A DNA stretch of 60,516 nucleotides, the filler included, from Hausera hauseri (Eukaryota): the NCBI GenBank assembly GCA_046269625.1. It is 10 parts of 10 records of this genome, joined end to end, with 100 filler letters (N's around TTAATTAATTAA, not from the genome) between each part and the next. Parts side by side here need not be neighbours in the genome. Positions count along the whole stretch, not along the records: positions 27,840 to 32,220 come from JBJURY010608777.1; 9 more parts are not named here. One strand, given 5' to 3'. The position numbers were made by a program, and so were the translations under genes. This document shows positions 16,501-60,516 of the stretch, piece by piece; position 1 is the stretch's first letter; each line of letters opens with the position of its first letter. The notes beneath the pieces were generated by a model that worked only from the letters and a program-made list of their open reading frames with translations, was not told where the DNA came from and did no database searches.

Positions 16501-16887
16501 AGGACCAGTTCAAGCTGTACAACAGCAGCATTTTTGGCAAGACCATGGAAAATATCCGCAACAGGATTAACATAGAGTTGGTCACTGTGTGGAAGCGAGC
16601 AAAGAAGCTTATTGCCAAGTCCAACTTCCACAGAAGCACCATATATGCGAACTTGGTCAGCATAAATATACTGAAAACACCCTTGCAATTCAACAAGCCA
16701 ATATATGTGGGTATGGCAATACTAGACCTGTCGAAGACCTTGATGTACAAATTCCACTACGAAATCATGGTCCCCACATTCAAGTCCATACAGCTGATGT
16801 ATATGGATACTGATAGTTTCATCTATCATATCTATACGGAGGACATTTATGAGGACTTTGCTAAGTTGGCTCGACATATGGATACGT
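13560..16887 (+). mobile_element. pPolB element copy 2: tandem Cys/His-rich domains, Ala-rich linker, endonuclease VII-like domain, DNA pol B (decayed, truncated by contig end)
   Basis: GSSYIQLPEWI, CYLC...DHCHFTGACRGAA, FHNLNGYDSHFI, FVDSFRFM, KLYNSSIFGKTMEN, YMDTDS. Confidence 0.9.
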
Positions 16888-17470: not shown

Positions 17471-20400
17471 TCATTCTTTCGACCTCCAATGTTTGACGTT
17501 GTCAAGTTACGTAACATATCGTCGAGTTTAATGTTGTTTCGTTTGTCTTCTTCCTTGTCGAATAGTCTAGCCCAATTTACCTCGCAAGGCATTCTTCTTG
17601 CTGCTTTCCGCACTAAGCTTATAGCCCTGTTGATTTCATTCTGTCGGTTAGGGTTTATCTTGATAGCTAAATATAATAACACTTTTCTCAACTCCTCATT
17701 GGTGTTTTCTACCATAATCTTATCAATTACTGATTCACCGGTTAAGTTACTTTTCGATAGTTTGAACCGCGAACTTCGCATCATCTTAGCTGCATTGAAT
17801 ATTATCTTTTCTTTATTATCTAATACATCACCTTGAAGTCTTGAATAATTTACAATTCGTATTAAATTTTTCATTAACTCTCTTAATTCCTCATTATCTC
17901 TGCTAAGAGTTGAAATCGACATGAGTCTCAATTCTCTAATTAACTCTCCATTGTAATCTACTTCTTCTGTCACTTTTCTAGGCCTACCTACTGGGCGTTT
18001 CGGTCTCGGACCCTTAGTGATTGTTTCAGTCAGTGGTAATAAATTTATATCGTATTGTTCCTTATTCTCGTCTGTTTGTAAATACTCAAAATACAATACA
18101 GCGTCTCGAACTCCCATGATTTGTCCTACGCATTGTTCTGTTTTGGCTTTACGTGTGGCTTCTTCTTTTGTCTGTTCGTTAGCTATCACTATTACTATCC
18201 GATTTGTTTTGTCAGGAATAATCCCGACGTCCATTAGTTGTTCTAGATCATCGAGTATTCTACCTCTAAAATAAAATCTGTAATTTAACTCGTTTGTTCC
18301 ACCACTGTTTATTGGCCATTCTCTTACGTCCTTTACGTCGAAATATGTAGTTAACTCGCATTATTTTTTGTCCATCCATTCGGATGACACCATTACTTTT
18401 ATCGTTACCTCAGGTTTAGCCCTCAAGATTTTAGCGTACTTCCTTATCAAAAGTTTCGACACCGTACTATAGATCGTGTTTTCTCTAGATAATTTAGTTA
18501 AAGTTGGAATAAGTTGTCGTAATTTATTCTCAGTAATGTTTACGTTAATTAATTCAATCAAATCCCTTTCAGTTTGCGCTGAATCCAGTAGCATCTCCAC
18601 ATTGAATATTCTGTTCTGCGGGCACGTTTCTATTTTATTTAATTGTATTGGAGTCATGGGCTTTTCGGTCAGCATTGCGTCGAAATATGCATCCCACTAT
18701 TGCTCCTTACCGACTTCTGGGAGTCCAGCGTCTATCCCAATTATTTTTGCTCTCTGTACATTTTCCCGAATTTCTTTCAACCTGGGTTGTATTTCTTTCA
18801 TCTGCGTAGTCCGAAAACCTACTCCATTTCCACAGGCATATTAAATCATTTTCAGTAATTCCCCGAATTCTTTCGAGTCGATGAATCCCTTTTGATGATA
18901 ATCTGTTAGTTCGATGATTACATTTTTTTCCATCTATGTACAAATTCTCGTTTATTCTTAATTTCGGATTCGGTAAAAGCATATTTGTTCCGATAGACGT
19001 CAATCTCTTTTGTTATTTCATCTAACCTTGTTGCTCTTTGTTTCGTTTTGATACATGTTTCTTCTACTTTCTGTATATTGGGCATCAATTGCCTCATTTG
19101 CTCATCACTGATTTCCGCCATTTCCACTAATAAATAGGCTAATTCATATATCTCATTTATAACCTTCGCATCGGAATCCATGGCATCCGATAATTTCTTT
19201 ATGAACTTGTGTTCCTGAAAACTAAAATGTGGATCGTCTCTTATTTTTATCAACTTGGTATGGAAATTTTGGTCTGATCCGGGCATCCATTATTGTGGTT
19301 CGTGCAAGAATTTTATTGTGTCTATTATCGTATCTTGATGTCCTGGACAAATGTCCAAGGTTTCAAAGTCTTGTACAGAAATTTCGACAATCGGTTTTCC
19401 TGTTAAGTATTGGACTCCTTCTAGTCGGACAATCCTTAACTTTGAATTTACATCATAAATCATATTCCGTTTTTCCGTAAAATTCGTTTCTTCGATCAGT
19501 TTATAGATTTACTCCATCATCAACTCTTCTCGTTCCTTTTCCATAAATTTTAGTCGTCTTAGCGCTTCGAATTGAGTACGAATGTCTATTTCTATCCTCA
19601 TTGTGCCTAGATCATACGCACCTTCTTCTAATTGTTTCTTTACCGTTGGCTCACATTGCGGAAAATCTGTTTTGCGGTCTTCTACTAGTTTGCTTAATCG
19701 TGTTATTAATTCGGACCATTCCGACAATTGATTTGTGATAATTAATTTTGCTGTTATAGCTCTATCTAACATCTTATATACATCTCCTAACTCATCGTCT
19801 GGTTCTCTTAGGAAATTTATAATCTGGCTGACACAACTGAACTCGTCCCTGTACTCGTCCAATTCTACGATACAAGCCTTTACTATACATTGATTCTCCT
19901 CATTGTTTGGGAATATAATTAGATTTCTCAAATTATAAATCTGTGCTCGCATTTTGTTTTCTATTTTAATTCTATTATCTAAATTCGTATACCGTCTAGG
20001 TACGGCGAACGTGAGTTTAATCATCTCCATTAAGGGAGGGATATCCACTAGGTCTATACCCAATATTTCTAAGTCAATATTACTTCGATTACTAACCGGT
20101 TTTTTTTTGAGCCAGTGAATCATTGCCAGGAGAATTTCATTCATCATACGCTCCAAACTGCGAGCTGCTCTCTTTAATTTCTGGTTTGCTTCTAAAGTGG
20201 ACAGTAATGTCTGAGTTTTAATGACTTTTACATCGACTGTTTCTTCATTTTTATTCCATCCTTCTGAAATTTCTACTCTGCTTTTAATCTATGATTCTAA
20301 TTCCTGCTTCCATTTTAACAACGTTTCGGTTGATACCTCTTCGGGTTGTTCTAAGTCAACCGCTTCTGCAAACTTCCCTTCACTACGCAGTTTCAAACTT

Positions 20401-27739: not shown

Positions 27740-27839
27740 NNNNNNNNNNNNNNNNNNNNNNNNNNNNNNNNNNNNNNNNNNNNTTAATTAATTAANNNNN
27801 NNNNNNNNNNNNNNNNNNNNNNNNNNNNNNNNNNNNNNN

Positions 27840-28924
27840 CTAACTAATCGGCTATAGCTACCATTCGAATAGTATCTCAGGTCCGCAGCTTCTGCGCGGC
27901 ACACTGGGCATGTAGTCTTACCGTTCTCTAATGTCCATTTTTCTAGACAGAACCTACAATATTTGTGTCGACAATCCGGGTTATTTAGTCTTACATGCCC
28001 TTGTTTTAAATTGGCTTCACAGACGGGACATTCTTCTTCCTCTTTTTCCCACTTTTCATCATCTAAATCCACTCTCAGCATAATTTCGATGGGCTCTAGG
28101 ATCAACCCGTCTTTGTCCTGATATAAGTAAGCCGCAATTCTTTTTTCTTTGGGATTTATCGAACTCTTTTTCGGATCGCATCCTACCGATATTAGGGTCC
28201 AATCACTGATGGTGTCTCGATCTAAGTCGGGAACCTCTCCAGTCGACTGGTACCTTTGATATTGCTTCTTTAGCATCATCTTAACTGATTTATCAACAGG
28301 TAACAAAAGTTTACCATTTCTTCTTGATTGAAATATTGGAGCGACATATTTTCCTATCTTGTGGTTCTCCCAAACATACGTATTTTCATAAACTTGTCGA
28401 GCAGGCACCGCTTTTACAAAAAACATTGCTTCTTTAATTTTCTGTTTGCTGTAGTACTCGGTAGCTACTAGTATACGGGGGTAATCGGTCGTGGTGGTAT
28501 AATGAACGTTGTCCGCTGACGTCTTTTTCCTTAAAACGTTTACTTCGATTATTTGTTCTTTTTTTCTGTCCGGTTTCGAACCTTCTTCCCTCCTGTTTTC
28601 TTGTTTGCATGTCAGTGTGGGCTCCGATCTTTGTTTCTCTTTTCTTTCTCCTTCCTTACTTCTTTTCTTAAATAAGTAGTCAAAAACGGATGTTTTCCTT
28701 TTTGCCGTTTTCCCGCTTTCGGCTTCTAGTTTCCGAGGAATTTCAGGTACCTTAAATAAACAATCCTTTGTGGAACAGCTTGTACTGGGTTTTTCTTGGA
28801 TTTGCTTTTGAGTTTGTACTGCTTCGACTTCCGACCCCTTTATAGTTATCTGATAATTCCATTTTGGGGTAATTTCAACGCTCCTAGGTGGAGAATATAG
28901 GCGAAAACGTCTGCGGTAACGCAT
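27840..28924 (-). CDS. Accessory protein with C-terminal C3HC4 RING finger
   Basis: CPVC-x15-CRHKYCRFC-x11-CPVCR; Lys-rich N-half; homolog at 59321-60450. Confidence 0.85.
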
Positions 28925-28993
28925 ATTAAAATCTTGGGTTCTTGGAAAATTTATTAGGTTTTGTGCAGGATTTTGGGGAACCCACTCATGCTC

Positions 28994-30262
28994 TCAATTC
29001 AGTCCAGCACTTATATCTCGTAGGTACTGGGATCTTTGGCTGGCGGTCAATATTCTACTAATTTTCATATTTCCCCCGGTCATAGTTTCTATCATTAACT
29101 TAAACCGGCCTTCTGGGGTTAATAAAATATGTCCTCTTCTTTCTTTATCTTTGATCTGCATCTGTTTCACTACATATGGGTGAGATTCTATTTCTCTTAT
29201 TCCAGCTAAGTATTCTATTGGTATATCTAGTTTTCTCATTATTCCTTCTACTTGATACCCCACTAAGACGTATCCGTAGAAACATTGTGCCACCTCTTGT
29301 TGTACTAGTCTGACGTCCTTCCCTTGACTCAATTGGTCTCATCTAATCCCAGTAACTTCCGCGTGAGTTTCAAGCATCTTTTTTCTTGTAGTAATAGTTT
29401 TCGAATAGATTTCGACTCCATTTTCTTCCCGGATGGATATTTCTATCGGAATATAATCTTCTTCCCCCTCTCCATAATTTACTGCTACAATTCGGATATT
29501 GCGGTCATCTGCTACCAGCCTAAAAGACTGTAGATGATTTTCTTGTTCTAGTTCTGTAGGCTTTTGTCTAAATTTTATAATAGGTAGTATGGTATGTTCT
29601 GGTTCTTCTTTAGTTGTTTCGATAATCATTTTGACTGGCAGAGCGGCTACGCGGAACTCTAATTTTCTATCTTTGAAGTTCTTGCTATCGAACACGAACG
29701 TGCTAAATCGGTTTTGTCTTCTTTGGGAGGAATCCCATTTTTGCTCTTTCAACCGATAATATATTTCTCCGTCGGCTAGATGTACATATATTCTTTGTTT
29801 CTCGTTTACTTGGTATTGAGCGATTTGCTTAAAGGAATAGTCTCTGGCGTCTTTATCTTCTCTCCATGCGTATAGATATACTGTCCGATTTTCCTCGGTC
29901 ATTCCTTTAAGGCCATTTGGGATTTCGCTGACTCTATCATATTGGGCCATATTTTTTTCTTGTAATTCATTATTGATCTGTCTATATATGGCTTTAGAAT
30001 TTGGAATTCGTACAGTCACAGTTTTCTGCAAAAATTTGTCGATACTAAGTCGGCTTGCAGCATTTTGAGTGTCATTTTCGGTGTCGATTCTAATTCGGCT
30101 CGCATTCTCCCCTGCGTCGATCCTAAGTCGGCTAGAATCCATTCGCGTCTGGTTACTTACCAATCTGAAGAAAAAGAGATAAAGGTTAATTCTAAAACAA
30201 AGAATTGTTTTGAACCAAAACCAATTCTGTGTTTGATGACAGAATATCCTGTTCTGTAATTG
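28994..30262 (-). CDS. Accessory ORF of unknown function (in frame after TGA 30263; one internal stop at 29339)
   Basis: ORFs 29339-30163 and 28994-29332 share a frame; homologous region in copy C has no stop at that site (VTGIMKVQL). Confidence 0.72.
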
Positions 30263-32220
30263 TCAGGTTATTTTATCATATGGATCTAAGGAATTCTCCA
30301 GCTCCCTTAGTTCCCGTTCCGAATTTTTATGGCGCTTAAAATAACAGTTTTTGGTGACTAATCGAAAAATCGCAATTAATATGATGAGAACAATTACTGA
30401 CGATACCACGATAGATACAACTGTTAGTGTAGTTAATTTCATTGGTGCTTGTGTGGTGACTCGAGTTGTGATCTGCTCATAATCATGGGATTCTGTACGG
30501 ATTTCCTCTAAAGTTCGTACTGTAATTGTCTGATTTTGTTTGTTTTCTGCATATACTTGCACTATATATTTAGTTTGTGGCTTTAATAAGTTACATTCTG
30601 TTTGATACGTATTTTTGAACAGCGTCACCACATGGTTACCATATGTTGTCCGACAATTTATATATATGTCGTAGTCTTGTTTCTCTTCCACGAAAAACAC
30701 AATTTTAGACCAATATAATGAATATTTAATAGAAATACTCCCTAATTCTCCTTTAGGCACGCTGGTCGACAAAATGGTCGACGTAATGGTACTAATTTGA
30801 ATAGTTGATTTCTTTGTGGTTGTCTCTATTGAAATTTTCCAAATTTTATTTTCCAGATAGTAAGTTCGTAGTTGTACACTTGGCTTGTTAGGCTGTACTT
30901 TATATAAGTCAAGTCTTATCTTGAATTCTCGGTTTACAGGTATTTTGCAGCAAGGATTCTGCACACCTGCTCGAATAGAACAATATTCTATTTTCGGTGT
31001 CGGTCCATCTGTTGCTTCGAACGTAATACTGATTTCCTGACTAAAAGTTAATCCTGTCCTAGCGTTCACTTGGATGCATTGCTCGTCTTTATTTACAGAA
31101 ACTTTCTGGATATTTGCATCTAACATCCTTATATTTGGATCGGTGTTCCGAATTATCTCGTCCGTTTTCGCTTGGCTTGCATCCTTTTGTTGTGGCATTT
31201 GTATTATGAGCTCGGAGGCTATGTTGGCTTGAGCCCCAAACTTATAGGAATAGAATAGCTGAAAGCTATACCTGTAAACTTTCCCGAAATCTAGATTACA
31301 ACATCTCTTATGATTTCCGTATGGAAAATCACATACACTCACTTCATTCCCATTAGTTATAAATGTTATCTGAAATCCTATGTATCTCTGAACGGGATTG
31401 TCTGTTTCAAACCATGCACATGGTTTTCTCCAATCCATATCCCGTATTCTGAGTGTCTGTAAATTTTGGATATCCCTCTGTTTGGCGCTTGATTTCACCG
31501 TAGGTATGTGCGAAGCGATTAATGATAAGGCTAAGATTATCTGAACATATGATATCGGTCTAGTGACTATTGACGAAGTTTTCACGTCTCGTTGGCGCAA
31601 ATTGTAACGTTTATTTGGTCGTATTTCCGTCTTGACGACCCTTTGTACTGATACAACTTCTTCTTTTCCATTCTTGTTGATATATATTGTGGTCGGTGTC
31701 ACTCGCATAACTTCATAGGGTCCTCTACCCGTACGAGTTAATTTCAGCGAGGTGCCCTTTTTGGCTACTGGATAATGTATATAAACCCAATTTCCTTCCT
31801 CTATATTATGTGGTTTCGCTTTCTTATCATATTGTTTTTTGAATTGCTCTTGATATTCTTGAGATAATTCCTTGGCTATTTCCCAACACCTTTTTAATCG
31901 CGTTTGTAACACCTCTGCAAAGTTCTGTTCTAAATCTTCTGGATTTACTTTGTATGGCGTCATTCCTAAGTCCGTGGGTAATACGGCTTCACGCCCATAC
32001 ATCATGAAAAATGGTATGAATCCGGTCGCTTCGCAACTACTGTTGATAATACACGGATGACGGTGGCATTCATCCGTTCGACCATTCCATTACATTGAGG
32101 GTGATATGCAGTAGTTGTTAATCTCTCGATTTCAAATATTTTGGTGATTTTCTCAAATAATTCACTGGTAAAATTTCTTCCTCTATCCGTTAATATTTGG
32201 TCAGGTGGTCCGTAACGGCA
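30263..32220 (-). CDS. Integrase C-terminus fused in frame to a type I membrane protein with three Cys-containing FN3-like repeats
   Basis: YHPQCNGMVER, MYGREAVLP, GPYEV; internal signal YVQIILALSLIAS; LLKPQTKYIVQVYAEN; TM LTVVSIVVSSVIVLIILIAIF; tail YDKIT; 580 uninterrupted codons. Confidence 0.82.
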
Positions 32221-35105
32221 NNNNNNNNNNNNNNNNNNNNNNNNNNNNNNNNNNNNNNNNNNNNTTAATTAATTAANNNNNNNNNNNNNNNNNNNNNNNN
32301 NNNNNNNNNNNNNNNNNNNNAAAGAGTGCACGAATTGTGGTACCAAAGATTGCTTCAGCAGGTGCACAACCGGTGGTAGTAAACGGCGTGTTGCGCCATT
32401 CGAGTAAAACCAAAGGGAAGATGGTTGTCGAAATCTTATGAGTTTCGGCCAGGATTTTTAACGAGATCTTGAGAGTGCGACGAAAGCGTTCCAATAAGCC
32501 GTTCGACTGGGAATGGTATGGAGTTGTGTGTATGTGGTTTATGTCCAGTCAATTAACTAAAGACTTGAACAGGATCGATTCAAATTGGGGACCTTGGTCT
32601 GTAATTATATAGCGAGGTAAACCGAATCGGCTAATCCAAATCCTTATGAATGCATCAGCAATCTATATTGATGGAGCGCAAAGGGACGGCATCATGCCAA
32701 CGAGTTACGCGGTCCATCATTGTTAAGATAAATTGGTGGCCGTTATCGGAAGGTAATGGGCCAACGATATCTATGTGGACTGACTCAAAGCGGGATGTAC
32801 ATGGGAAATAGAATAATGGTGGTTTAAGATATTTAGCTACTTTGAACTTTTGGAAAGCTACGCATTGCATAACCAAGCTCTGTATATCAGACCTCATTGA
32901 TGTCCATGTTACATGACGTTTCAGAAGGCGGAATGTAGCCTTGGAACCTGGGTGGTGCAAAGAATGAACATGTTGAAATGCAGTTTGTTGGAGAGGAGGT
33001 GCCAAAATTAGCAAATGTTATCCAGGTGTCAAAGTATCCATGGCTATTCCATCGATGATTTGCACGGATTTGTACTGTTTCAAAATTTTATGAGAAGGTG
33101 GATTTTGGATTAACTGGTACTTTGAGAAAATTGGTGTGACGCTAATTGCTCCAACTGACTATAATAAGAAATCGCCTATTGAATTGTCTGTGCCAGAAAT
33201 ATGGCAAATTTTAAAGCTGAATGTTGACAGATATGAGATATGGCGTTCTTGTCGCAGTGATGGTTGTTTCATGTTCATTACGTAAACGAAAGGTTTGTGA
33301 TCCGTTTGGATAGTGAAGGAACGAGCGATAAGCAAATGTGAAAATGTTTCAGAGCTAAAACAATGGACAGGAATTCTCTATCGAAGGTAGAATAACGGCG
33401 TTCTTGTGGCGGCAGCTTGGGTGAAAAGAATTCTAGCGGCTCGTTTATACCTTAAGATATTTGATGAAGAACCGCTCCTACTGCTGTAGTTGATGCGTCG
33501 GTTGTTAAAATGAAGTCAGCATCAGGTTTTGGGTAGGCTAAAATTTCCACTGTTTTTAGCTTGTCGCGGAGTTCATCGAACTGGTTAATAAGTTCTGGTG
33601 TCCAATATATGAGCTTTTTCTTCGGCCCTGCTCCTAGTTGAGCGAAAGGAGCAGTTAACTGGCTACAGTGTGATACATATTTATGGAAAAATGTAATGTC
33701 CCAAGGAAATTACGCATGTCAGTAGTGGTTTGGGTAGTTCGATGTTTCGTTACTGATGAATTCTATCAGGCTGTGGACTGTGACCGTCAGGTTTGATGAC
33801 GTGGCCAAGGAAATTGACCTTTTTCCGGAAGAAAAAACACTTAGAAAAGTTTACTTGCAAATTGTAGTTGTGTGAACGTTGGAAAACTAGTCTGAGATGT
33901 TCTTCATGTTGTTTGGGCGATGCCGATGCGACTAGTATGTCATCAATGTACGGAAATACAAATGACAAGCCTGAAAGAACTGAATCAATGTGCCGTTGAA
34001 AAGTTTGTGCTGCGTTCTTTGAACCGAACGACATGAATGCGTATTCGAACAGACCAAAAGGTGTTATAATGGCCGTTTTTTGAATGTCTTTGGGTTCTAC
34101 CGATATTTGGTGGTAGGCTTTTTCAAGATCTATGATTGAATAAATCGTAGTTTTGTGCAAAGAATGTAATATATCCTTAATCAAAGGTAGAGGATACGCA
34201 TCCATGGTAGAGACGTTATTAAGTTAGCGATAAACGCCGCATGGGTGGAATGTGCCATCTTTTTTGGGACGACGTGGAGTGGTGATTCCCACGGTGATTT
34301 TGACCCTTTTATTATTCCAGCTTGCTCGAGTACAGAGAATTCTGCTTGGACTGCCTGTCGACGGCGTGGTGAAAGTGGGCGGAGTTTTTGCCTAACGGGC
34401 CTAGGATTTTCTGTGATAATATGATTAAATGTCGTGTTAGCCTGTCGAAATGCTGGGTTTTTTTATTGTATGAAAACAGGACTTGGTTAAATATTGTTGC
34501 ATTTCTTGACTAAGCGTAGTAAAGGCTGTTGTTGTCGCGGCAGTGGCTTCATTGGACTTAGTGTCAGGAATGGTAGAAATCGGACCGCCTAAATTGGACT
34601 TCAACTGAAACGTAGGATTGTTTACATTCGAATTAATAAGGTTTTTATTCAAATTGGTTGATGGTTTATTTAATATTGATTTTATAGCCGAAATAGGCTG
34701 CATGATCAGTTCGTTATTTGTGGAGGTGGGCTTTGTTAAACTTATTTTAGTAATCCGACGTTGTCTACAATCTACAAGGAGATTGTAGAAAGATAAGAAA
34801 TCAGACCCAAGTATTGGAGATTGTGTGTTGGCAACGATGAAAGTCCAATTAAAAATGTCGGAGAATAGTGGTAAAGTGAATGAAACCTTGAACGTGCCGA
34901 AAATGCGTAATGCTTGGCCGTTAGCTGTGTATAATTTAATGTTAGATGGTGAGATGGATGGTGTTTTGATGCATGGTGGTAATAAAAAAACAGCTGCCCC
35001 AGAATCAATGAGGAAGTTGATTGATTGATTGGATTCGGAAGCTAACGAGGCTTTTAATGTGAAAACGGCATTAGTACGGCTGTAATGATGAAAACGTTTG
35101 CTTGT

Positions 35106-35147
35106 GCCAGCATGTGCCGAAACATCTGGCGGATTTATGAGTTTTTT
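35106..35147 (-). promoter_or_regulatory. -1 ribosomal frameshift signal (A AAA AAC plus hairpin) between gag and pol
   Basis: Slippery heptamer just before gag TAA; downstream GCCAG-ATGT...ACAT-G-CTGGC stem; -1 frame is open into FLIDSGA. Confidence 0.75.
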
Positions 35148-36100
35148 TGAGGCACAGTATTTATGTTGTTGGAAGGGGTAGGTTGTGATGAATTAGATCG
35201 GATAACAAAAGTGCAACTTGTAACGCAGTTCTGTGCTTTAGAATTGAATTTATTATGGTACATGCAGATAATATGGGATCGTTTTAAATTGGGAACATAA
35301 AATCTGCAACCTAAGCAGCATTTAGTAGAGTTATTTTTGAATTTGGTATGGTAGTAACACACCATTGATCGTGTAGGTGACCTCGCATGCCTTGAATTTT
35401 GAGATGATGTGCGGCTATGGTTCGCATCAAAACGATTTTGTCTAGGCATGATTAAGGCTTCGATTTTTGACGTGAGTGCAGAAATTGCTTGTTGTATGTT
35501 GTCGTTTGCGGCACGTAAAGAATTTATCTGTGAGTTCAGATTAGCTATGTCGCTAGCTTGTTTAGTTGTTGGTACTTGTAACGAAGCGGCTACTAATGGA
35601 GCTGTACGTACCTGTAATATCTCGTGGCTTTGTCAGACAGTTGTGCTAGTTTTTGTAGTGACGATGTGTTCTCTACTATGGTCAACAGTGCACATATATC
35701 TCTAGGTAAATGCTTCAGAAAATATTTGTGTAGTAAATCGGCGTTATTTGCTTGATTAACGCCAAGAGTACTCAACTGAGTTAGTGAGGTTTGAAGAAAT
35801 TCTGAGGGTTTCAATGTGCCTATGGTGTTGCCGTTAAAATATTTGTAGGTAATGTTATCCAGAGATGATTCCGTGATTTTTATAATCGAGTTAAAAGTGT
35901 TTTGTATGGGTCACTGCTTTGGAAAATTTCCTACAAGTTTGGAAGCTGCGACTTAATGTTGTAAGGCAAAAGTATAAGCAAGCTGTTTGCTTTAAGAAAA
36001 GAATCGACAATATTATTCGACCTCAACTAAGCCGCATGAAAGTCCAACCACGTCTGGCTGGAATGTTGCTTGTCAACAAAGTATTTTGCGCAAGGTAGAT
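35135..36100 (-). pseudogene. gag: gag with two tandem CHCC motifs
   Basis: KPSEFL, FLKHLP, CYYHTKFKNNSTKCCLGC and CMYHNKFNSKAQNCVTSC. Confidence 0.8.
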
Positions 36101-49490: not shown

Positions 49491-50745
49491 CTGAAATAAT
49501 AGATGTATAAAAATGACCAGATATGTAGAGAATTCGTGCACCGGAAATTCATAACATAAGGGAAAGAAGACACTATCAGTCTGCAAAATTTAAAAACGAA
49601 ACATTATGCTTGCCAGAAATTCGAATTTTTAAAGTATGCTTCAAATGCACTCAAAACCGGTCTGAATCTGAACGAAAATGTGCATTGTAAAAACTTTTGC
49701 TTAATAAACCATATATGATTCAAAACAACTCAATTAATTTATTTACCAAAATGCACGTCTGTAAAATGTAAAAGAAAAGAAATAAAATTGACGCAATTCA
49801 CAAATGATTTTGTTACAAAAATATGACAGTCATAACACTTATATTGCCAGATATATAGAATTTATCAAAGTACAACTAGATCAATGAAATTGAGTTATTT
49901 AAAATTTTTCCCTCCAAAATTACGTTTTTAAAGTTATAGGTTCACAATTTCCAGAATAAATAAACAGTTCATCATTTTATGTTGTATTACGAAAATAAAC
50001 TATGCTTATATAGTTAATTATTGTTGGCCGCGGACGCATCCACGCCGTTCACGTCATCGCCAGCCGGTGTAGGGTTGGAAAATACCCGCCCTCTGGTATG
50101 TCTGCTGAATCAGAGTTGGATTGATTGAGATTACTCATTGAANNNNNNNNNNNNNNNNNNNNNNNNNNNNNNNNNNNNNNNNNNNNTTAATTAATTAANN
50201 NNNNNNNNNNNNNNNNNNNNNNNNNNNNNNNNNNNNNNNNNNAAATCGACTATAATGGAGACCTAATCAGAGAATTGAGACGAATGTCTATGCCGACCTT
50301 TAGTACGGATAATGGGGAACTGAACGAACTGATCAAAGACTTAATACGAATAGTAACCTACTCTAGCCTCGGCAGTGATGTATTAGATGAGAAAGAGAAA
50401 GCCATATCGAACGCCTCAAAGGCCATGAAAGGTCTTCGATGTAAATTATCCAGAAGTACTTTAAGCGATAAAATAATAATCGAGAAGATTATGGTAGAAA
50501 ATGCCGTAGAAGAATTACGAAAAGCATTATTATATCTGGTCATTAAAACTAACCCAAACCGGGAAAATGAATTCAACCAAGCTACTAAATTGGCGAGAAG
50601 GGCTGCTAGGAAGCTACCCCGAGAAGTGAATTGCTCTAAGCTATTCGAAAAAGAGAAAGAACATCAGAGTGGATTCTTCTTCGATAACAATAGATTCGGA
50701 GATCTGCTATTAAATGTAACTGGAAATCGCAGAGGAAATGAATTG

Positions 50746-52700
50746 AACTGGCTAATAAACTTTCTTACCATGATGATGTTGATAAGACAAATGGGCGCAG
50801 TTACAGTATATTACTGCGGCAAATTTAGATTGGGCCAAAAATATTCGTTAATGGACTTGGAAATGTACAAAGATGCGAGGCTCCACAGATTTGAAACAAA
50901 AGAAAAAAGTTATGTATTATACTAACAACGCGAACTACTTACTTTGGACGTAGTAGAATGTATGTTGCGGCGATCTCGCAGCATTTCCCATTGTGGACTG
51001 GTACATAGGCACTCGTCAATAATTAAGCCAACAACTCCACTAATTCCGATGAATTTGGAGAGACAGCATTGTAAGCAAGCTAGAGATACGGGAAGAATAA
51101 AGTGGGGCGGTATAGAAATGGAAATCCAGCAAGGAAAAATAATCAAAGTGTAGCGGCAAATAATCAAAAATAGCGGCAGGAAGACTAAACTTGCACACCG
51201 GAAATTGCCAATGTGCACAATACAATACTGGAAAAGAATTAGAGTCAAATATCGTAGTAGTAGACTTTTATGAAACTGAAATGAGCGCACAGAAAGCGAT
51301 GTTCCATAGCGTTACTAAACTTTACACTGAGAACCATAAGTGCCACATACAGGATAACACATGCCCGTTTCGAAGTTCTGTTGTAATTTGACAGCCTCCA
51401 TCCAAGACCTCCAATTGCAATTTTATAAGAATTAAAGAACTTAAATTCAATGAGACGACCGGAAAACAATACATAAGTAACACGGAAACTAATTTTAAAA
51501 CGCGAGAAGATGTAGCCGAACAATCCACGCCTACTATACTAATTTCTGATACTCTTGGATTAAAATTTGTGAAGAAGGATGTACTCATAAGAAGTGACGT
51601 TATAATGTACGCCACCAATTATGAAGCATTTTCGTCGCAGAGACGGAAATAAATGCCAGAACGTTTAAGCTCGAGACTCAAGATATTCGAATTGATGATT
51701 ATCTAAAGAACAGAGACGACTATTTCTATTATAAAGGACAACCCGGAATAGACAAGTTGTATCATAAAATTATAATGAACGACTGTAAGCTAGACTTGGA
51801 AGTTATAAGGACTAAGCTTGCTTTAATATATGCCAATGCCGAATTAGCTTCACCAATAATTCCAATAAAGGAAGGTGTTTTTGGACGAGTAACCGAAGAA
51901 GTCTTATTGACCTACGAATGTGAAAAGAAGGACGTACCTATTAATGTGGAAGAAAAGAGGTGTATAAAAGAACTTCCAGTGATATACAAAGACGTACCAA
52001 GATCAGTAACACCAATTACCAGAGTACTATTGACTAACTCCACTCAACAGACAATTCTAAGAGACGGTAAAACCAGTTTAGGCGAGCCGATGTTCAGACG
52101 AAACGAAACCGACTGGGTAAGTTTGCCAAACGGCGGCATCATCGCACCACCTACCAAGTTGACAGGAACAAACCTGATAAAAGGGATAACCGATGATAAA
52201 TTTTAAGATACAGCTGCGAAGTGTATTTACCGACCAAAAGAAGTAGAGGCGTTCAGACAATTTCTCGCTTTTCTCAGTCAACGCACACATGAATTGAACA
52301 AAGCAATGCATGCAATATTGGAGTATTCGCGCTACGAGCCAAATGGGAGTCATTACTTGGCGTCGGCTATTACAAGAATGTAACAACAGAAATATTGTAC
52401 AAAATCTGGGGAAGATTCCTGATATTCGGACAAACCGCGTTAGGATTTCTGGCAATATATTTTTGTATTCAATTAGTGAAAGCCATAATTCAAGCACTCA
52501 TAAATGGATACGAGATATTTACTTTGACAGGATTTTCGTGCAAAATTTCAACAGCTATTATTACACTCTTCGGCAAATTCTTAAAGGCTTATGAAGAGAG
52601 TAAATGGAAAACAGATGTAGAGAGACATGTTGGCTACCACAATCGAAAACGGAAAAGACACATATTCGATTACAAAAAAAAGATTCGTAGATAGTAAAAC
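50746..52700 (+). pseudogene. env: Chuvirus-like class III fusion glycoprotein upstream of pol
   Basis: Signal-like segment then VTVYYC, YSL, ECML...HCG...HSS, C...TG, GRVTEEVLLTYEC, CIKELPV, PITRVL, and TM region WGRFLIFGQTALGFLAIYFCIQLVKAII..LINGY. Confidence 0.72.
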
Positions 52701-53124
52701 ACGAAGAAATAATTCTGATGATGACGAGCCTAAAGGAGCAGATGTCACCTCCAGACCAAACTGGCACAAAAATTACTCTGTTATCAAACTACCATTATTA
52801 ATATTGCCGCCAACGGCATCTATACATAAAGATTGAAAGAAACAATCTGCAAGTTCGTGTCAGACAGATGTTTATCGGAAGCCGTTTAACCTAGAGGATC
52901 CTTACGAAGGAACCAAACGTTACGGGATATTGCGTAAGATTTACGAAACGGAAAGAAAGACTATTCCACATTGCCGCTCAACGGTCGACGATCACGGTAT
53001 AATCTATTCACCTAGAGTACCTAAAGCAAACGAAATGCAATCGATATTTGCTTGAAACTATAAGACATGAAATTTCCGAAACCAAGATGATCAGCCACCG
53101 GCTAGAAATTAAAGAGTAGAAAAT

Positions 53125-56100
53125 ATGAACGGTATAAATAACGAACTATACCCAATCGGAGAACTGAGACAGATGGTCGAACAGCCATCCAGAACTACTG
53201 AAGTTACCATAAACGGTTATAAGGTGTCCACGGTACGACACCCGAGAACAGCATCAAGTTATTACTGTACGGTAATCGAAGGAAGGCCTTTCGCGAAAAT
53301 TCAATTAGAGGATTGGGATGTATACGCTTTAATAGACACGAGATCCAAAATATCACTGATAAAATACGATTTGATACCGCAGTTCCTACGGAAACAATTA
53401 TATCCACCTCCCTCAACAGACCCAAGCAGTATTGGAGCTTTTGGACAGTCATCGAAAAGTAAATTCCGTTGGAAACTGGAAATGTGCATAATGGGACAAT
53501 CTTCCCGCCATGATTTCTCAGTAATGCAGCAATTAACGGATGATGTAGTATTAGGATGTGATTTATTGAGACAACTACCCAATATAGCAATCGACTTCAA
53601 TGCAGTCAAGTTAATAGAACTTGGTCCAATAAAAGAAGTCAAAACCACCAAGGATAGAAAGTTCGGAGAAGTGTGGATTTCAGTAGATGAAATCATACCA
53701 CCCAGAACTGAAGTACACATTTATGCCCAAATACGTCAAGATGACGACAAACCGGTATATTTCGAGCCAAAAGAATCGCTTAATCCGAACATTGTACTTA
53801 GCAACATTTTGACCAGAGTATCGAGGGGTCGCGTGCCGATCAGAGCTGCAAATAACGCACCAACCCCAGTTAGACTATATGCCAATACCACTTTGGAACA
53901 CACGTATAGAGTATCATCAATTACGATCGAAGAGAAACCATATAAGGGTGCCGAATTTCCGCCCCACGTTAAGACTAAATTGTCACCGGAATCACACTGC
54001 CGATTTTACGACTTACTTCGTCGTTATAGATCAATTATCACGAAAGATGAAGAAGATATTGGCCGAGCCAAAACCTTAAGACTCACGATTCCACTTAAGA
54101 AAAAGCCTGGATCAAAGGACGAAATAGATTTGGAACATCAAAAGATGTCTAAATGTTACCCTCCTTCACACTTGTTAAGGCCAGAAATAACTAAGGAAGT
54201 TGAACGGATGTTAAAGGCCGACATAATTAGACCTAGCTACAGATCTTGGTATTCACCGATACTCATTGTTAAGAAAAAAAGTATCACTAAGCACCGATTT
54301 TGTATCGATTACCGAGCATTAAATACACTTATGATGAAGGATTCCTTTCCGTTTCCATCGGTAAAGGAAGATTTGGACAGACTCTCTAGAGCCAAATGGT
54401 TCACCACTCTCGATTTACAATCTGGATACTGTCAAGTAAAGATAGAAGAAGAAGATCGTTACAAAACGGCCTTTAAGACACACAATAGTATATACGAATT
54501 TAATGTTATGACATTTGGAATAACGACCGGACCCGCCATCTTTACTCGCATGATGAACAAGATGCTGATGGGATTAGAACAAGTACTCTCCTATTTAGAC
54601 GACGTTATGATTGCGTCAGAAACCGAAGAGGATTATTTAAAAGACATTGAAGGTACACTTATGGGACTGGAGCAAGCTGGATTGAAACTGAATCCCAAGA
54701 AATGTAAATGGGCTCAAAACACTGTATCGTACCTTGAACATAGTTGGAGAAGGTGGGTCGAAGCCGGACGAATCATTACTAAGTAAGATATCAGATTGTA
54801 TGGAACCTCAGAATCAGAAAGAATTAAGAAACTGGTTAAGGTTGTGTGGATACTATGCTAATTACGTACCAGATAATGCGAAGATAAACGCACCTTTGTA
54901 TGGTTTACTGAAGAAGGGAATCAAATAAAAATGGACCAATGTCGAACAAAAGGCTTTTGATGAAATGTAGAAGATTCTAACTAGTGAACTTGTTCTAAGA
55001 TATCCCGACTTCAACTTACCGTTCATAATCAAAACAGACGCCAGTAAGAAAGGTATCGGATATGAACTGGCTCAGAAGCGAGAAGACGAGGAACTGGAAC
55101 ACCCAGTAGCATATGGAGGGCTTTCCTTAAAAAAAGCAGAGAAGAACTATTCTGTTACGAAGCTAGAAACGCTAGCAGTGAAGGGGGCACTACAACATTT
55201 TAACGTGTACGTTTATGGACAAAAGATTATAATCGTTACTGACATAAGGCAGTTACGACATTAAAGCGTAGGGCAAATAATCCAACTGTAGACTTAACAG
55301 ATGGATTGAAGAGATTTCACGTTATAACGTCGAATTCCAATACAATCTCGGAAATAAGCACATCGATGCCGATGCATTATCGAGAATCAAAACTAAAACA
55401 AGTGCAGTTACAGTAATGAGGAAAGCACACCTCGAAGATTTAGTGGAAAGAAAACGGACTCTTATGCTGGATAAGGCAATGAAAATTTTTATCGAAAAGA
55501 GAAAAGACAAGGTTATACAACAAATTGTCGAGTTCGTTAATACCAATAAAACACCAAAGGGTCATCAGCTACGGAAACATCTACGACGATATGGTCACAA
55601 ATACTGTTTCACCGGAGATTCAAATCAAGAAAATGTATTGTACTATGAACAAAAAGGACAAAAATTAGTCGTCATACCGAAAGGATTACGAGCAAACGTG
55701 CTCATGGCCGAACATGACTCATACTTAGCCGGACACATGTGGAAAAAGACAGAAAAGAATATTAAATAAATACTATTGGCCGAGCGTTTACATTGACGTA
55801 AGGAATTGAGTGAATGCTTGTGAAGTGTGTGCGACCAAGCAGAGAAAAGTGAAAAACTATGTTGCAGAGCTTACGCCTATCGACGTGCCCGATAGACCAA
55901 TGCAAGCAATGTTTACGGATATTGTAGAACCATTGCCTACGACCCACAAAAATAACAAATACATTTTGACCTGTGTAGACCGATTGACTCATTTCGTCGA
56001 GCTTATAGCGTTATTAGACCAAAAGGCCGAGACCTTGGTAGTCCGGAAAATCATTTTCAGGTACCCACCACCCGAACAAATCTTGACAGTCCAAGGAAGA

Positions 56101-56760
56101 AACTTCACAAGTGAATTGTTTGATAAAATTACCAAAATTTTCGAGATTGAACAACTAACTACTAGAGCTTATCATCCCCAATGTAATGGAATGGTCGAGC
56201 GGATGAACGCGACCGTTGTACGAATCTTATCGACAGTAGTCTCAAAAGACCAGAAAAATTGGGATGAGTTCTTAGAAGGTACACAGTTTGCCATTAATAC
56301 TACTCTACATCTTGCGACAGGATTCACTCCGTTATACATGATGTACGGTAGAGAAGCTGTACTGCCTACAGATCTAGAATTAATTCCCTACACAACGAAA
56401 ACGGAAGATTTAGAACAGAATTTTGTCGAGGTATTGCAACAGAGATTACATAAGTGTTGGGAAATAGCCAAGGAGTTATCTAGAGAATACCAGGAACAAT
56501 TTAAGAAATAATACGACAAGAAGGCTAAGTTACACGACTTAGAATCCAGAAACTGGGTTTACGTACACTATCCAGTAGCAAAGAAAGGCACCTTTCTTAA
56601 GCTCACCAGGACAAGCAGAGGACCTTATGAGGTTACCAAAGTTACGCCAACCACAGTTTATATAAATAAAAACAACAAGGAAGAGGTCATATCGATTCAG
56701 AGAGTAGTTAAAACGGAAATAAAACCAGACAAATGTTATAATTACGTTGGAGCAAAACCG
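53125..56760 (+). pseudogene. pol: gypsy pol: aspartic protease, RT, RNase H, integrase
   Basis: ALIDTRS(DTGS), RFCIDYRALN, LDLQSGY, YLDD, KTDAS, HD...GH/CEVC, YHPQCNGMVER. Confidence 0.95.
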
Positions 56761-56779
56761 ATAATGAAAAGAAAACGTC

Positions 56780-58116
56780 GTCGATAGTGACCAGACCAAT
56801 ATCATATGTGCAAATAGTCCTCGCCTTATCGTTAATCCCATCGTATATACGAAGATGAAATCGATAACTCAAACCCAAAAGTTACAATATGAGGCAAAAC
56901 GAAAGGATATCCAAAATTTTCAATAGCTTAGAGTATATGATATGGAATGGAGCAAACCATGTGCGTGGTTTGAAGCAAGTAAACCCGTTTAGAGCTATGT
57001 AAAATTTCAAATAATATTTGTAACTAGATATGCGATGAGAACATGTGATTTTCCGTACGGACATCACAAAAGATGTTGTGATTTGTATTTTGGACAAGCT
57101 TACGGATACAGATTTCAAATGTTTTATTCTAATCAGTTTGGAGCTCAAGCTTATATAATTACTAGTAATAAGAATGCCCCAACGAAAGGATGCAAACCAA
57201 GCCAAGACGGACGAAATAATCCGAAGCACTGACCCGTTTGAAAGACTCTTAGATAATAATATTATTGGAGATTTACCAGGACCTAAAGAATCAATATACA
57301 CGAATTGAAACTAAAATAGAGCTGCCTGAAGGCAGACAAATATCCGTCCGATTTATACCATTAAATGCTTCGATCCATACTCCGGAGTATTGTTATCTGG
57401 CCAGACGCCGATCTACTACGTGCTGTGTAATACAACTAGGACAGGATTATCAGTTGCAACTTGACTTGTACAATACGTACCCCGGAGAACAAAGCACTTA
57501 TTTACGGGGATATTGTCCTAAAATCGGAATATGGAAACTTCAGTTCCCTACTACAACGCAAAAACCGTCTACAGCTCCAAGTACAACTCTTACTACGGCA
57601 ATTGTCACTTCAGAGGAAGTGCTCAGAAAAGAACTCGAAAACAAACTGGTTAAGATTTTGGCAAAAAGCGATAAAATTCTATTTTTCGTTGAAGAGAGGT
57701 TAAATCAAGATGTCAAAATTAAATGTAGCACCCTGCACACCAACCAAGTCGTGATCTTGAGAAAGAATAGTCAGAAAACTGAATGTATGTCATTACGGCC
57801 GCAACATGACTATATAGTCAGAATCACTGCAAAGGGTAAGAACCCTAAAACGTACACAGTGTGGACTTTAGATATTAAAATTGAAGTAATGCAGCATAAG
57901 AGTTATAGTATCCAAAGTGTGTTCACCACAAATAGTTCCATCAAGGAAAATAATTTACCAATAACAGCTATATTCAGTTTGTCAATTTTCGTTCTTGTCA
58001 CATTAACAGCGATGATTTTTCTAGTTGCCAAAAATTGTAATAAACGCCGTAAAAATCAAAAGGGAGATAAACGGGAAAAGAGGCACGGAGACGGACTTTA
58101 TAATAACATAACCTGA
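56780..58116 (+). pseudogene. Post-integrase FN3-like type I membrane protein, copy C
   Basis: ISYVQIVLALSLI, CDFPYGHHKRCC, LRPQHDYIVRITA, TM ITAIFSLSIFVLVTLTAMIFLVA, tail YNNIT. Confidence 0.8.
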
Positions 58117-58122
58117 CAACTA
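58114..58122 (+). promoter_or_regulatory. Stop-codon readthrough signal TGA-CAA-CTA (copy B: TGA-CAA-TTA at 30265-30257)
   Basis: Matches CAR-YYA leaky-stop context; same position in both copies; downstream frame conserved. Confidence 0.72.
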
Positions 58123-60516
58123 CAGATCGGGTTATCCTATCATCATATAAAGAGAATGTTTTGCTTCAAAACGATGATCTGTCTTAGGATTAACCTTCAT
58201 TTTTATTTCAGCAGAGTAAGCATGGCCGAGAAAACGAAAAATCCAACACTCAGTTCCAGTATTGATATCGACGGTTTCTCACAGTAGCACGTCACTGTCC
58301 TTAAACCACTGTCCAAAAGTCTATACCGACACAATGGGAGAAAACCTGAAAATCCAAAAATATCTAGAGTTCGAAAAGAGAGTAAAATACCAAATGGACT
58401 AAAATGGGGTTTAGAAGAGAATCGACTGGTTCGATTATATGCCATGCGAAATCCAAAGGATGTACGGGATTACCTTTTAAGAGATCTAATTCCATATGAT
58501 CCGACACATCAGCAATTGTACGTACATGTCGCTGATGGTGAAATTCAATACAGGATCGTAGGACAATCCTGGAGTACGCAAAAAGTGAAGCAGTGGAAGT
58601 TTAGTACTTATGAGCTATGTTGCTATAGCCTCGTGAATTATGTTCTGGAATTTAGGATCGCGGACCTCCCGACCAAAATCATGATCGAGATGATGTGGCG
58701 GATCGAGGTAATGAAGCCGCTACCACGTTATTATGTGTACAGAAACGATCGGAAGACGCGATAGAGCAAAATGGAGAGTCCTACAGATTAGTTCCAGACG
58801 GTAGAAAAACCGGAATATTGGCCGTGAACTATGGAGAAAAGGATGACGGATAGTATGTTCCAATCAAGGTCTCTATCAGAAATACTAATGAAGAAAAGAT
58901 CATAAATAAAATAATCGCGCCTCGAGCTAGAATAAAGCACACTTTTCCCGATGTCACAGGAATCATGAAAGTACAGCTCGAAAAGGGAAAGGATTTCTTG
59001 GAGATCCAAGAAGACATAAGCCATTGCTTCTATGGATATATTGTTACCAAATTTCGAGTGCACGAAGCGCTGGATCGACTAGGAATTAGGCAAGAATACA
59101 TAGTCGGAATTCGAGAAATGAGCCGAAATCTAGCAGTTGTGAGCCAAGTAGAAAATACCTTGATGCAGAAAAGAGGTTGCCTGCTTCCTTCCTCAGCATC
59201 CCGTAAATCGTAATTCAAGATGATGCTCGAGGCCATGAATGGCGAACGATTTAAATTTCCTAAACTGATGACAGCAGGTCAAGGGACCAAATTAATAAAA
59301 AATATCTACGACTCGTTACAATGGGACACGTGTGGAAACCCAGAAGCCATATGCAGAACGCAATATCCGACAACAACCCCAAAGTCCTAATGCAGAAATT
59401 ACGAGAAGGGTTTAGTGAATGCCCTAGTTATCGACACATCGAATCCCGAGGACATAAGCAATTTCAAGTAACAGTTCATAATGATCCGTTGGAAGGTCCT
59501 AGCGGCCGACAAAAACCGGCCACCAGTAAATTGGAAAAAGAAACCATCTTAGACAAAACGGACAATTCAAGAAAGAAGAAAACAAAAACTTCCTTCCTGG
59601 AATATACTAGTAAAAAGAGGAGTAAACCTAGTAAAAATCAAATGGACGAAATTAAGCCCGTAGCCGACAGTCTAATTCCAAAGGAACCAACAAATGATTC
59701 GAGGAAAATAACGAACCAACAAGAAACTAAAAAGAATAGCGAAGATCAGTTAAAGATTACCAAAACCGGATCCCTTAAAACGAAAGTCAACGTTCTTCGA
59801 AAGAACTGGGAGAAAGATACCCCGATTATAGTTAAAGAATTCGGCCAAGTGAAAGAATGTAAAAAAATTCTAGTCATGGCCGAGTACAATAGCAAAGGGA
59901 AAATAAAAGAGACTATATTTTACGTGTCTACTGTCCCTAAAAGGATAGTCAGTGGAAATGAATATGACAGAGAAGATACCACCATCGGCAGGTACTTAGC
60001 CCCAATATTTCAGTCGAAAAGCGGTACTAACAGATTGACAGTTCCCGTGGATACCCAAGTTAGAGTTCATTTAAAGATACAATACAAGAAGACTGGAGTA
60101 GCCGATTTGGATAAACAAGAAATAGTCGAATAGGTCCTGGTCGCGGTATCCGACGATCCGAGAAAAAGCTCCATAGACCCCAATCAAAAGAGATTGTATG
60201 AATGCTTGTACCAAGACAAAAAAGGACTGGTATTTGAGAGAATAGAAGTGGACGAAAACCTTGTGGACATTGACGCAGCTGAAAAAGAAGAGTGTCCCGT
60301 TTGTGACGTGGATCTCTATCAAGGATTCGTGGTTGGACAACAAAGATTGCAGTCATAAATATTGTCAATACTGCCTAAAAACGTGGACCCTGAAAAATGG
60401 GATAACGACTTGCCCAGTATGCAGGGCCGAAGCCACCAGGCTAAGATGCTACTCAAATGAAAAAAATAAGAAAATAGTAGAGATACTACCCGAACCGGCT
60501 ACTACGTCCTACCATT
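58117..60516 (+). pseudogene. Accessory ORF(s) and terminal RING finger, copy C
   Basis: IPNGLK, YVHVADGEI, LEFRIA, HCFYGY, VNVLRK, YLAPIFQS, and CPVC...DCSHKYCQYC...CPVCRAEA (60293-60435, one frameshift). Confidence 0.85.

Follow-up and report, generated by a model that had tools for sequence, protein, structure and literature searches.

A RING finger encoded behind the integrase of a long terminal repeat (LTR) retroelement of Hausera hauseri (assembly GCA_046269625.1) raises the question of whether such an element carries a ubiquitin ligase (E3) of its own and what that protein would do. The window, i.e., the whole stretch of 60,516 nt that was analyzed, is not a single locus, as it consists of 10 contigs joined by nine spacers, each made up of 44 N, 12 nt and a further 44 N. 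Two families of the gene occur in it. Family B lies on the minus strand of the contig at 27840-32220, with the RING gene at its left edge, next to a spacer whose N runs occupy 27740-27783 and 27796-27839; family C lies on the plus strand of the contig at 50243-60516, with the gene at the right end, where the window stops. Comparison of the homologues indicated that the RING forms the C-terminus encoded by a single gene (about 770–870 aa) and is not a stand-alone protein, and that this accessory gene belongs to the element and is held by purifying selection in at least three lineages. Our preferred reading, to which we assign a probability of roughly 0.45, is an element-encoded multidomain E3 with a pseudo-nuclease targeting module that would act against host defence.

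The RING-HC (C3HC4) finger of family B, at 27899..28030 on the minus strand, was recognized by the Pfam models zf-C3HC4 (E 3.8e-7) and zf-RING_2, both above cut-off. It corresponds to residues 299-342 of the 361-aa frame, free of stops, that a preliminary description of the locus had delimited (28924 to 27842, minus strand), and follows the pattern C-x2-C-x15-C-x-H-x2-C-x2-C-x12-C-x2-C (28030-27899). The eight zinc ligands, in C3HC4 order and spacing, and the Arg right behind the last Cys were complete in B and in P0002, an 870-aa homologue; in C (60293-60422, plus strand) the ligands are present, but a frameshift divides them. Residues that we presume to form the E2-binding surface, namely a hydrophobic residue before Cys2, a Trp in the central helix, a Pro in the last knuckle and the Arg behind the last Cys, were found in all three. 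In the fold model of the C-terminal half (mean predicted local distance difference test score, pLDDT, 47), only the RING was confident (about 80), and a fold search with it returned a list full of RING and U-box structures (best Z 6.8, root-mean-square deviation 2.8 over 61 residues).

The RING had also been called intact, conserved in a second copy, C, and the end of its cassette. The RING stretch is indeed unbroken in B, although the gene around it has two internal stops in 767 codons; similarly, C keeps the ligands but is broken by a stop at 60131 and by the frameshift within the RING, near 60332. That the RING ends the cassette was not confirmed, as the frame is still open at the spacer edge (27840) and the homologues continue beyond that point; since the frame is open up to the spacer, the 3' end of the B gene is missing. 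Further, B and C are, by their divergence, separate families and not copies, with 63% amino acid identity in the RING and 26–49% in the remainder of the gene.

With regard to ancestry, the proposed likeness to the viral RING ligases ICP0, IE2, PE38 and p28 came down to the RING fold. These proteins resemble the gene in carrying a RING-HC on a parasite accessory protein and appeared among the fold matches; however, none matched at E <= 0.001, and nothing credible was found outside the RING, the only part in which the model was confident. In a RING tree built by a quick method (130 rows, 58 columns; C absent, and 6 of 134 non-element matches excluded for want of the RING pattern), B and P0002 paired with a support of 87, while the tree was otherwise unresolved (5 of 127 branches at 95 or more) and no donor could be named. 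A second, unrelated RING (Pfam zf-RING_2, E 6e-11), in which the customary His ligand is missing, was observed at 42042-41920 (minus strand); the polymerase of a pPolB element lies about 600 nt upstream of it. It shows no special kinship with the B RING: it ranked 127th of 129 by likeness, the other 128 having been preselected for their likeness to B.

The coding sequence extends far upstream of the frame first delimited. A single frame of 1416 codons spans 32089 to 27842 in B; TGA interrupts it three times, at 30265, 29341 and 28996, and there is no other stop. The accessory gene occupies 27840..30142 on the minus strand, about 767 codons from the first ATG after the spacer that follows the first TGA to the contig edge, and includes the latter two stops (29341-29339 and 28996-28994). 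A homologue search of 1.84 billion representatives yielded 135 matches, among which only P0002 (E 4e-65) matched well outside the RING. When the two internal stops of B were set to X, both proteins aligned over 828 columns with 305 identical residues (37%; E 6e-173), the frame of P0002 being open at both positions. Since P0002 and the similarity between B and C span both stops, the ATG at 28924 lies within the gene, whose start is at 30142 or further upstream. In family C, the decayed gene covers 58222..60516 (plus strand), up to the window end, with four stops (58285, 58851, 59211 and 60131) and at least three frame changes (near 58700-58740, 59325 and 60332).

Reassignment of TGA was considered for the three stops of B and rejected: only the first is common to C, the internal stops of the C gene are TAG and TAA, and TGG was seen by eye in the exons of a host METTL3 gene. 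Additional searches brought little: none of 2176 candidates was found with P0001 as query; P0002 residues 55-810 retrieved, among 5575, P0002 itself and one plant RING; an alignment search with the N-terminal half found only P0002 among 8000 candidates scored; none of 66 pattern matches in bacterial and archaeal genomes was confirmed; and matches among phages and plasmids were weak, one of them being a plasmid 3'-5' exonuclease at E 0.06. The RING feature is thus real but was wrongly bounded, and it is richer than first described, as the preliminary description had overlooked three things: the exonuclease-like domain together with the N-terminal half of the gene that contains it, the breaks in either family, and the signals at the upstream stop codon.

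The claim that the RING is part of an LTR element was borne out by the colinearity of B and C. From integrase to RING, 1369 of 1416 codons align and no unaligned stretch in between exceeds 17 codons, which leaves no room for an LTR or an intron, so that no 3' LTR upstream of the RING fits. Nor is the change between both families neutral. Synonymous sites are saturated (proportion of synonymous differences, pS, 0.65–0.82), and third-position identity is 0.32–0.46 against about 0.27 expected from base counts; in the RING, identity at codon positions 1, 2 and 3 is 0.71, 0.79 and 0.39. Protein identity and the ratio of nonsynonymous to synonymous differences (pN/pS) are 77% and 0.18 for the integrase, 63% and 0.29 for the RING, 49% and 0.46 for a conserved domain of about 150 aa, 43% and 0.50 for the N-domain, 39% and 0.50 for the middle domain, and 26% and 0.69 for the linker. 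Every bootstrap range within the accessory gene lies below 1 (RING, 0.18–0.40). As these are uncorrected ratios from protein-guided alignments, the true dN/dS values are probably lower.

The same data bear on the view that a host RING gene merely adjoins the element or is passively carried by it. A 3' LTR was found in neither contig, since the contig (B) or the window (C) ends before one could be visible; both versions in the window are broken, and RING fingers are common, the one beside the pPolB element being the third in the window. However, the gene occupies the same position, strand and frame behind the integrase in two families with saturated synonymous sites. Moreover, with no gap above 17 codons there is neither intron nor LTR, whereas introns seem, by eye, to be present in the host METTL3 gene, and none of the 135 matches is a cellular protein with this domain architecture. 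We consider a host passenger very improbable.

The domains predicted upstream of the RING are, in gene order, an N-domain, a DEDDh exonuclease-like domain, a basic linker and the conserved domain of about 150 aa. The second of these, a DEDDh/DnaQ-like domain at 29000..29500 (minus strand; matched at about 29500-29230), was detected by several approaches, most of them with P0002. This protein matched DnaQ (8h18, E 8e-4) and the PolC exonuclease (2p1j, E 3e-3) in the PDB, PHROG 192 (E 1.1e-4) and the NCBIfam DnaQ/PolC models (E 0.004–0.011), and its language-model features in the ESM Atlas resembled RNase_T clusters (0.92) and the arenavirus nucleoprotein (NP; 0.91). A profile of eight exonucleases, the plasmid protein mentioned above and seven phage proteins taken from 25 listed of 68 records, gave 23.6 bits for P0002, 11.9 for B and 9.2 for C, compared to 5.5, 2.1 and 7.3 for the best of 300 shuffles each, and profile–profile comparison between the element domain and exonucleases reached probabilities of 84–92%. 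All eight reference exonucleases keep the D-T-E motif, the Asp of motif II and H-x4-D; in all three element homologues, the D-x-E of motif I is replaced by N-x-G(-E) and the motif II Asp is absent. These profiles, and not a confident structure, support a DEDDh fold that lacks the catalytic acids, i.e., a putative pseudo-nuclease.

A related proposal is that the domain is an active nuclease with an unusual active site, which would trim nucleic acids that trigger host sensing. The likeness to arenavirus NP and a Glu one place behind motif I, invariant in the three homologues, fit this idea, for which Maelstrom, with a changed catalytic set, and the arenavirus NP exonuclease offer precedents in the available text of PMC7968707. 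None of the four canonical acids and the His was matched with confidence, though, and the three homologues share no invariant His and one invariant Cys in the domain, so that a set of the ECHC type is missing as well; nuclease activity therefore seems improbable to us.

The remaining upstream regions are without a family. The N-domain (29612..30043, minus strand) is conserved and weakly predicted as a beta-sandwich; its model matched cupins, GOLD and SID-1 beta domains, with Z values of at most 7.2; because this is a common level, it was left unassigned. The basic linker (28550..28993, minus strand), whose NLS-like (nuclear localization signal) character had been noted before, is poorly conserved, but such clusters occur in the linker of all three homologues. 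One short motif stands out there, near 28700-28650 (minus strand) in B, KTSVFDYLFKKR, at 59585-59630 (plus strand) in C, KTSFLEYTSKKR, and at about residues 549-565 of P0002; we take it to resemble, putatively, a p21-type PCNA-interacting box with a basic tail. The 150-aa domain (28082..28543, minus strand; from VNVLRK to GL, with an acidic patch between it and the RING) showed the previously described motifs VNVLRK, ILVxxEY and YxAPIFQS in both B and C. Searches of the ESM Atlas, Pfam and the PDB gave no usable match for it, and its profile found no further copy among 137 proteins or in the window beyond B and C.

Expression of the accessory gene has to be considered together with the open reading frame (ORF) that precedes it. 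In B, this membrane-protein ORF (30266..31570, minus strand) shares the frame of the integrase and comprises a predicted signal-like stretch (31570-31514), an FN3-like ectodomain, a predicted transmembrane segment (30448-30338) and a short tail; the FN3-like assignment is weak (fn3, E 0.0033, below cut-off). The junction between integrase and membrane-protein ORF is in frame in B and out of frame in C, which may be due to decay in the latter. The signal-like stretch, at about 56770-56830 (plus strand) in C, lacks a Met of its own in B, and most of the differences between both families fall on third codon positions; this suggests that it could be synthesized within Pol or, alternatively, from a spliced leader.

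The stop codon of this ORF stands in a conserved setting. In B (30143..30265, minus strand), TGA (30265-30263) is followed by CAATTA and a 120-nt spacer that is open and in frame; in C (58114..58221, plus strand), TGA is followed by CAACTA and an open, in-frame spacer of 105 nt. The hexamer thus conforms to CAR-YYA in both families, the single difference being at a degenerate position, and across the window only 13 stop triplets out of 6506 are followed by such a hexamer. CAR-YYA is the readthrough signal of tobacco mosaic virus (TMV) and plant viruses, and in SIRE1 an in-frame stop separates pol and env (PMC2194720, available text). The locus resembles TMV and SIRE1 in having an in-frame stop with CAR-YYA between two ORFs; unlike in these systems, the stop is UGA, follows a membrane-protein ORF and leads into an E3, and an acceptor-like site overlaps the spacer. 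This TTAAC-pyrimidine-CAG site (from 30189 in B and 58190 in C) accounts for two of 20 such sites in the window. An ATG follows it by 10–22 nt, and a donor-like GTAAG lies 4 nt past its CAG in both families (CAG and donor-like site together at 30165-30155, minus strand, in B, with GTAAGT; at 58212-58221, plus strand, in C, with GTAAGC). As the spacer holds both the acceptor-like site and the readthrough context, two routes would be open, a spliced RNA yielding a soluble protein and readthrough yielding a membrane-anchored one.

If readthrough prevailed, the product would be a receptor-like E3: a type I membrane protein whose ectodomain is FN3-like and whose cytosolic tail consists of pseudo-nuclease and RING. 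It would ubiquitinate surface or endoplasmic reticulum proteins (receptor down-regulation, superinfection exclusion, budding) and could coexist with a soluble form. The rare TGA context present in both families argues for such a protein, as do the spacer, which is in frame and open in B and C, the start residues of P0002, which align to the spacer in the same frame, and the predicted topology, which puts the extension in the cytosol. In shuffled sequences, the spacer was open up to the first ATG in 591 of 5000 cases for B and in 512 of 5000 for C. However, B and C share descent, so the two contexts amount to one event retained, and conservation within the spacer does not depend on codon position (23, 25 and 25 of 33), which points to an RNA signal rather than to a protein. 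Likewise, the acceptor-like site and nearby ATG offer a route without readthrough, no hairpin common to B and C was found behind the stop (in B, z reached -3.0, but only with 80 nt; in C, z was -0.7), and the NLS-like clusters suit a soluble nuclear form better. A membrane-anchored, receptor-like E3 appears rather unlikely to us.

The carrier is, by its predicted genes, a Ty3/gypsy element of the GAG-ENV-POL type, a known kind. The rest of the C element (50243..58113, plus strand) is decayed and encodes a Monjiviricetes-type fusion glycoprotein (about 50750-52690, plus strand; Pfam), protease and reverse transcriptase (PR-RT; 53113-54783, plus strand; Pfam and similarity), an RNase H-like stretch (RH), integrase (IN; core matching Pfam rve) and the membrane-protein ORF. 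The best PDB matches of its RT are to Ty3 (E 9e-40), and the order PR-RT-RH-IN is present, RH having been assigned through its similarity to the Pfam-positive RH of the contig at 21692-27739. In B, the contig begins within the C-terminal part of the integrase (31590..32220, minus strand). Pfam Monjiviricetes_fusion, which we take to be equivalent to a gB-type glycoprotein, was above cut-off in four pieces. The 5' half of the element type was found in a related contig (16988..21591, minus strand) that encodes a gag zinc knuckle and, after about 3 kb of coding sequence without assignment, the beginning of the glycoprotein; the gag-env order thus comes from one contig and the env-pol order from another, joined by 59% identity over 304 codons with C.

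Elements of this type with an HSV/gB-type ENV have been described in Nematoda, Bryozoa and Platyhelminthes (PMC13524379), and a survey of chuvirus-like glycoproteins reported no clear capture by gypsy elements in arthropods (PMC10084718), both as far as the available text goes. The errantiviruses of the former study share with the present element a Ty3-type RT and a fusion glycoprotein between gag zinc knuckle and pol; the difference is that here pol is followed by the membrane-protein ORF and the pseudo-nuclease-RING gene. The available text of PMC13524379 makes no mention of RING, exonuclease, DEDD, fibronectin, readthrough or ubiquitin, although that screen covered three ORFs and extra genes may be unreported. 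Burro, a giant gypsy element of planarians, is similar in three respects: gag and pol flank a mononegavirus-like env, long additional coding sequence is present, and there are ubiquitination-linked domains (PMC6431247). Burro is further characterized by a single in-frame gag-env-pol polyprotein and a size of over 25 kb; in the present elements, the frames are decayed and the contigs short. Its extras are MATH, BIR, BCL2, ankyrin and Ubi/SUMO domains in ORF1; in the available text of PMC6431247, the only RING named is an AIR1 motif label and no DEDD domain is described. Pfam found none of these Burro-type domains in the pieces of the gag-env interval that were scanned, the 5' end of gag being missing.

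The interval of about 3 kb between the gag zinc knuckle and the glycoprotein (18860-17450 and 20288-18921, minus strand; 50245-50750, plus strand) has no Pfam family, and its last part enters the glycoprotein in frame, a Burro-like layout. The contig at 21692-27739 (plus strand) is a more distant, rearranged relative from which most of the RT seems absent. It holds a piece of the gag-env insert upstream of gag (75% DNA identity to 18789-19118) and, at its end, an integrase followed by a signal-like stretch and an FN3-like motif, whose likeness to the B membrane-protein ORF is not significant.

In the preferred reading of a counter-defence E3, the gene behind pol and the membrane-protein ORF would encode a ligase of about 770–870 aa with the RING as its predicted C-terminal catalytic module. 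The soluble protein would be made from a subgenomic RNA via the conserved acceptor-like site, and a low-level readthrough extension of the membrane protein is conceivable in addition. The pseudo-nuclease and the two unassigned domains would choose the target: they would bind RNA or cDNA of the element, or else dock on a host protein of the DEDD family or a small-RNA pathway. Finally, the RING would recruit a host E2 and ubiquitinate host restriction or silencing factors on site. An anti-silencing or anti-immunity role had been suggested from the RING before and remains a proposal.

The gene could instead be a replication helper and not a weapon: the pseudo-nuclease would bind element RNA (export, localization, packaging, 3'-end protection), and the RING would turn over Gag or ribonucleoprotein or feed ubiquitin-dependent budding. 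Conservation is even outside the linker, as a helper might show, and the element has its own fusion glycoprotein and therefore needs particle trafficking. On the other hand, the accessory gene diverges much faster than the integrase (39–63% vs. 77% identity). Host-facing accessory genes tend to diverge fast. In rotifer LTR elements, a part in handling the ends of element RNA has been proposed for the DEDD ORFs behind pol, and DEDD proteins that are inactive retain RNA binding (PMC5408684, available text), in line with a helper; the lack of any mention of RING, exonuclease, DEDD or ubiquitin in related GAG-ENV-POL elements (PMC13524379, available text) suggests that such a gene is dispensable for the core cycle. 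We regard a helper function as possible but doubtful.

Several results weigh against the counter-defence reading. Firstly, counter-defence and a role in the handling of the element's own RNA or particles would fit the data alike. Secondly, the exonuclease assignment has its weak sides: the N-terminal half was modelled poorly (mean pLDDT 36), and no DEDD fold was among the matches of its model; one of the eight profile rows came from a search with P0002 itself; a Pfam scan of P0002 and B found no exonuclease family, nor did a PDB search with the B middle domain alone find an exonuclease; the profile scored only 3.4 bits (C) and -0.1 bits (B) on whole six-frame contigs; and the alignment to exonucleases covers about 70–90 residues (motif I to II), motif III not being alignable. 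Further, the invariant Glu behind motif I could still bind metal. Lastly, the family is tiny, with one full-length relative among the 135 matches and none added by further searches, and both families of the gene in the window are broken.

Other known systems share single features with the gene. DnaQ-like domains are listed among known accessory domains in the available text of PMC6338049. ORF3 of the rotifer elements Juno and Vesta is comparable in that it follows pol in an LTR retrotransposon and encodes a DnaQ-like exonuclease; its domain is of the RNase D-like DEDDy type, the catalytic residues reportedly being intact, and no RING is described for it in the available text (PMC5408684). In contrast, the present gene shows matches of the DEDDh/RNase T/DnaQ type, has lost the acids and is fused to a RING. 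Troyka was set aside, since nothing in its available text bears on this gene. The nearest functional analogy may be PML isoform I, which also combines a RING and a catalytically dead DEDDh fold in one chain and whose pseudo-exonuclease (PXL) binds G-rich nucleic acid (PMC13659232, PMC10123124; available text); homology is not implied. PML-I is a host antiviral protein of jawed vertebrates with the RING first, followed by B-boxes and a coiled coil (same sources), whereas in the gene studied here the order is reversed, with a C-terminal RING, no B-box was found by Pfam and the carrier is a parasite. A bolder variant, which we put forward as speculative and rather doubtful, is that an enveloped retroelement lineage would have built a receptor-like ubiquitin ligase of its own. 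One locus would switch, through splicing or readthrough, between a soluble nuclear ligase and a membrane-anchored form with an FN3-like ectodomain, and the dead DEDDh domain would serve as a decoy through which host nucleases of small-RNA pathways or nucleic acid sensing are captured and destroyed; this would mirror PML and amount to a Vif/Vpu-like accessory system in an invertebrate Ty3/gypsy virus.

The rest of the window holds host genes and further elements. A divergent mTOR-like gene (E 2e-14; 37180-38551), a gene for an RTP1/TANGO6-like HEAT protein (46134-46664) and METTL3/MT-A70 (about 48580-49680) all lie on the minus strand, the last apparently with very short introns of about 40–50 nt (read by eye). 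The mTOR-like and MT-A70/METTL3 genes identify the host of the window sequences as a eukaryote by predicted gene content, and the divergence of the host genes together with the kinds of element present suggests an invertebrate animal. Two decayed pPolB elements (13688-16885, plus strand; 42648-45746, minus strand) share 76–80% DNA identity, and a fragment at 5537-5881 (minus strand) resembles them by eye. A stretch of 1.25 kb at 10485-11736 matches its own reverse complement at 68%, as in a decayed foldback or inverted-repeat element, and two small, decayed gypsy-like elements (1448-3800, plus strand; 32361-35900, minus strand; 65% DNA identity) have no visible env. No Rfam family, tRNA or LTR-sized repeat was found in the window, nor any long direct repeat besides the spacers and one 46-nt pair.

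The ingredients of this gene are already known singly, namely the GAG-ENV-POL order, DEDD ORFs and ubiquitin-related domains in giant gypsy elements. A fusion of a pseudo-DEDDh domain and a RING behind a membrane-protein ORF with a readthrough context was not found reported in open-licence PMC and bioRxiv texts, Repbase and subscription papers being outside that scope. To our knowledge, few LTR retroelements counter their host with proteins of their own. If the proposed reading is true, an envelope-carrying Ty3/gypsy element would maintain an E3 with a pseudo-nuclease under selection, and its ubiquitination targets would name restriction factors of invertebrates. It would also mean that complex, lentivirus-like accessory genes and a membrane anchoring controlled by recoding arose outside vertebrate retroviruses.

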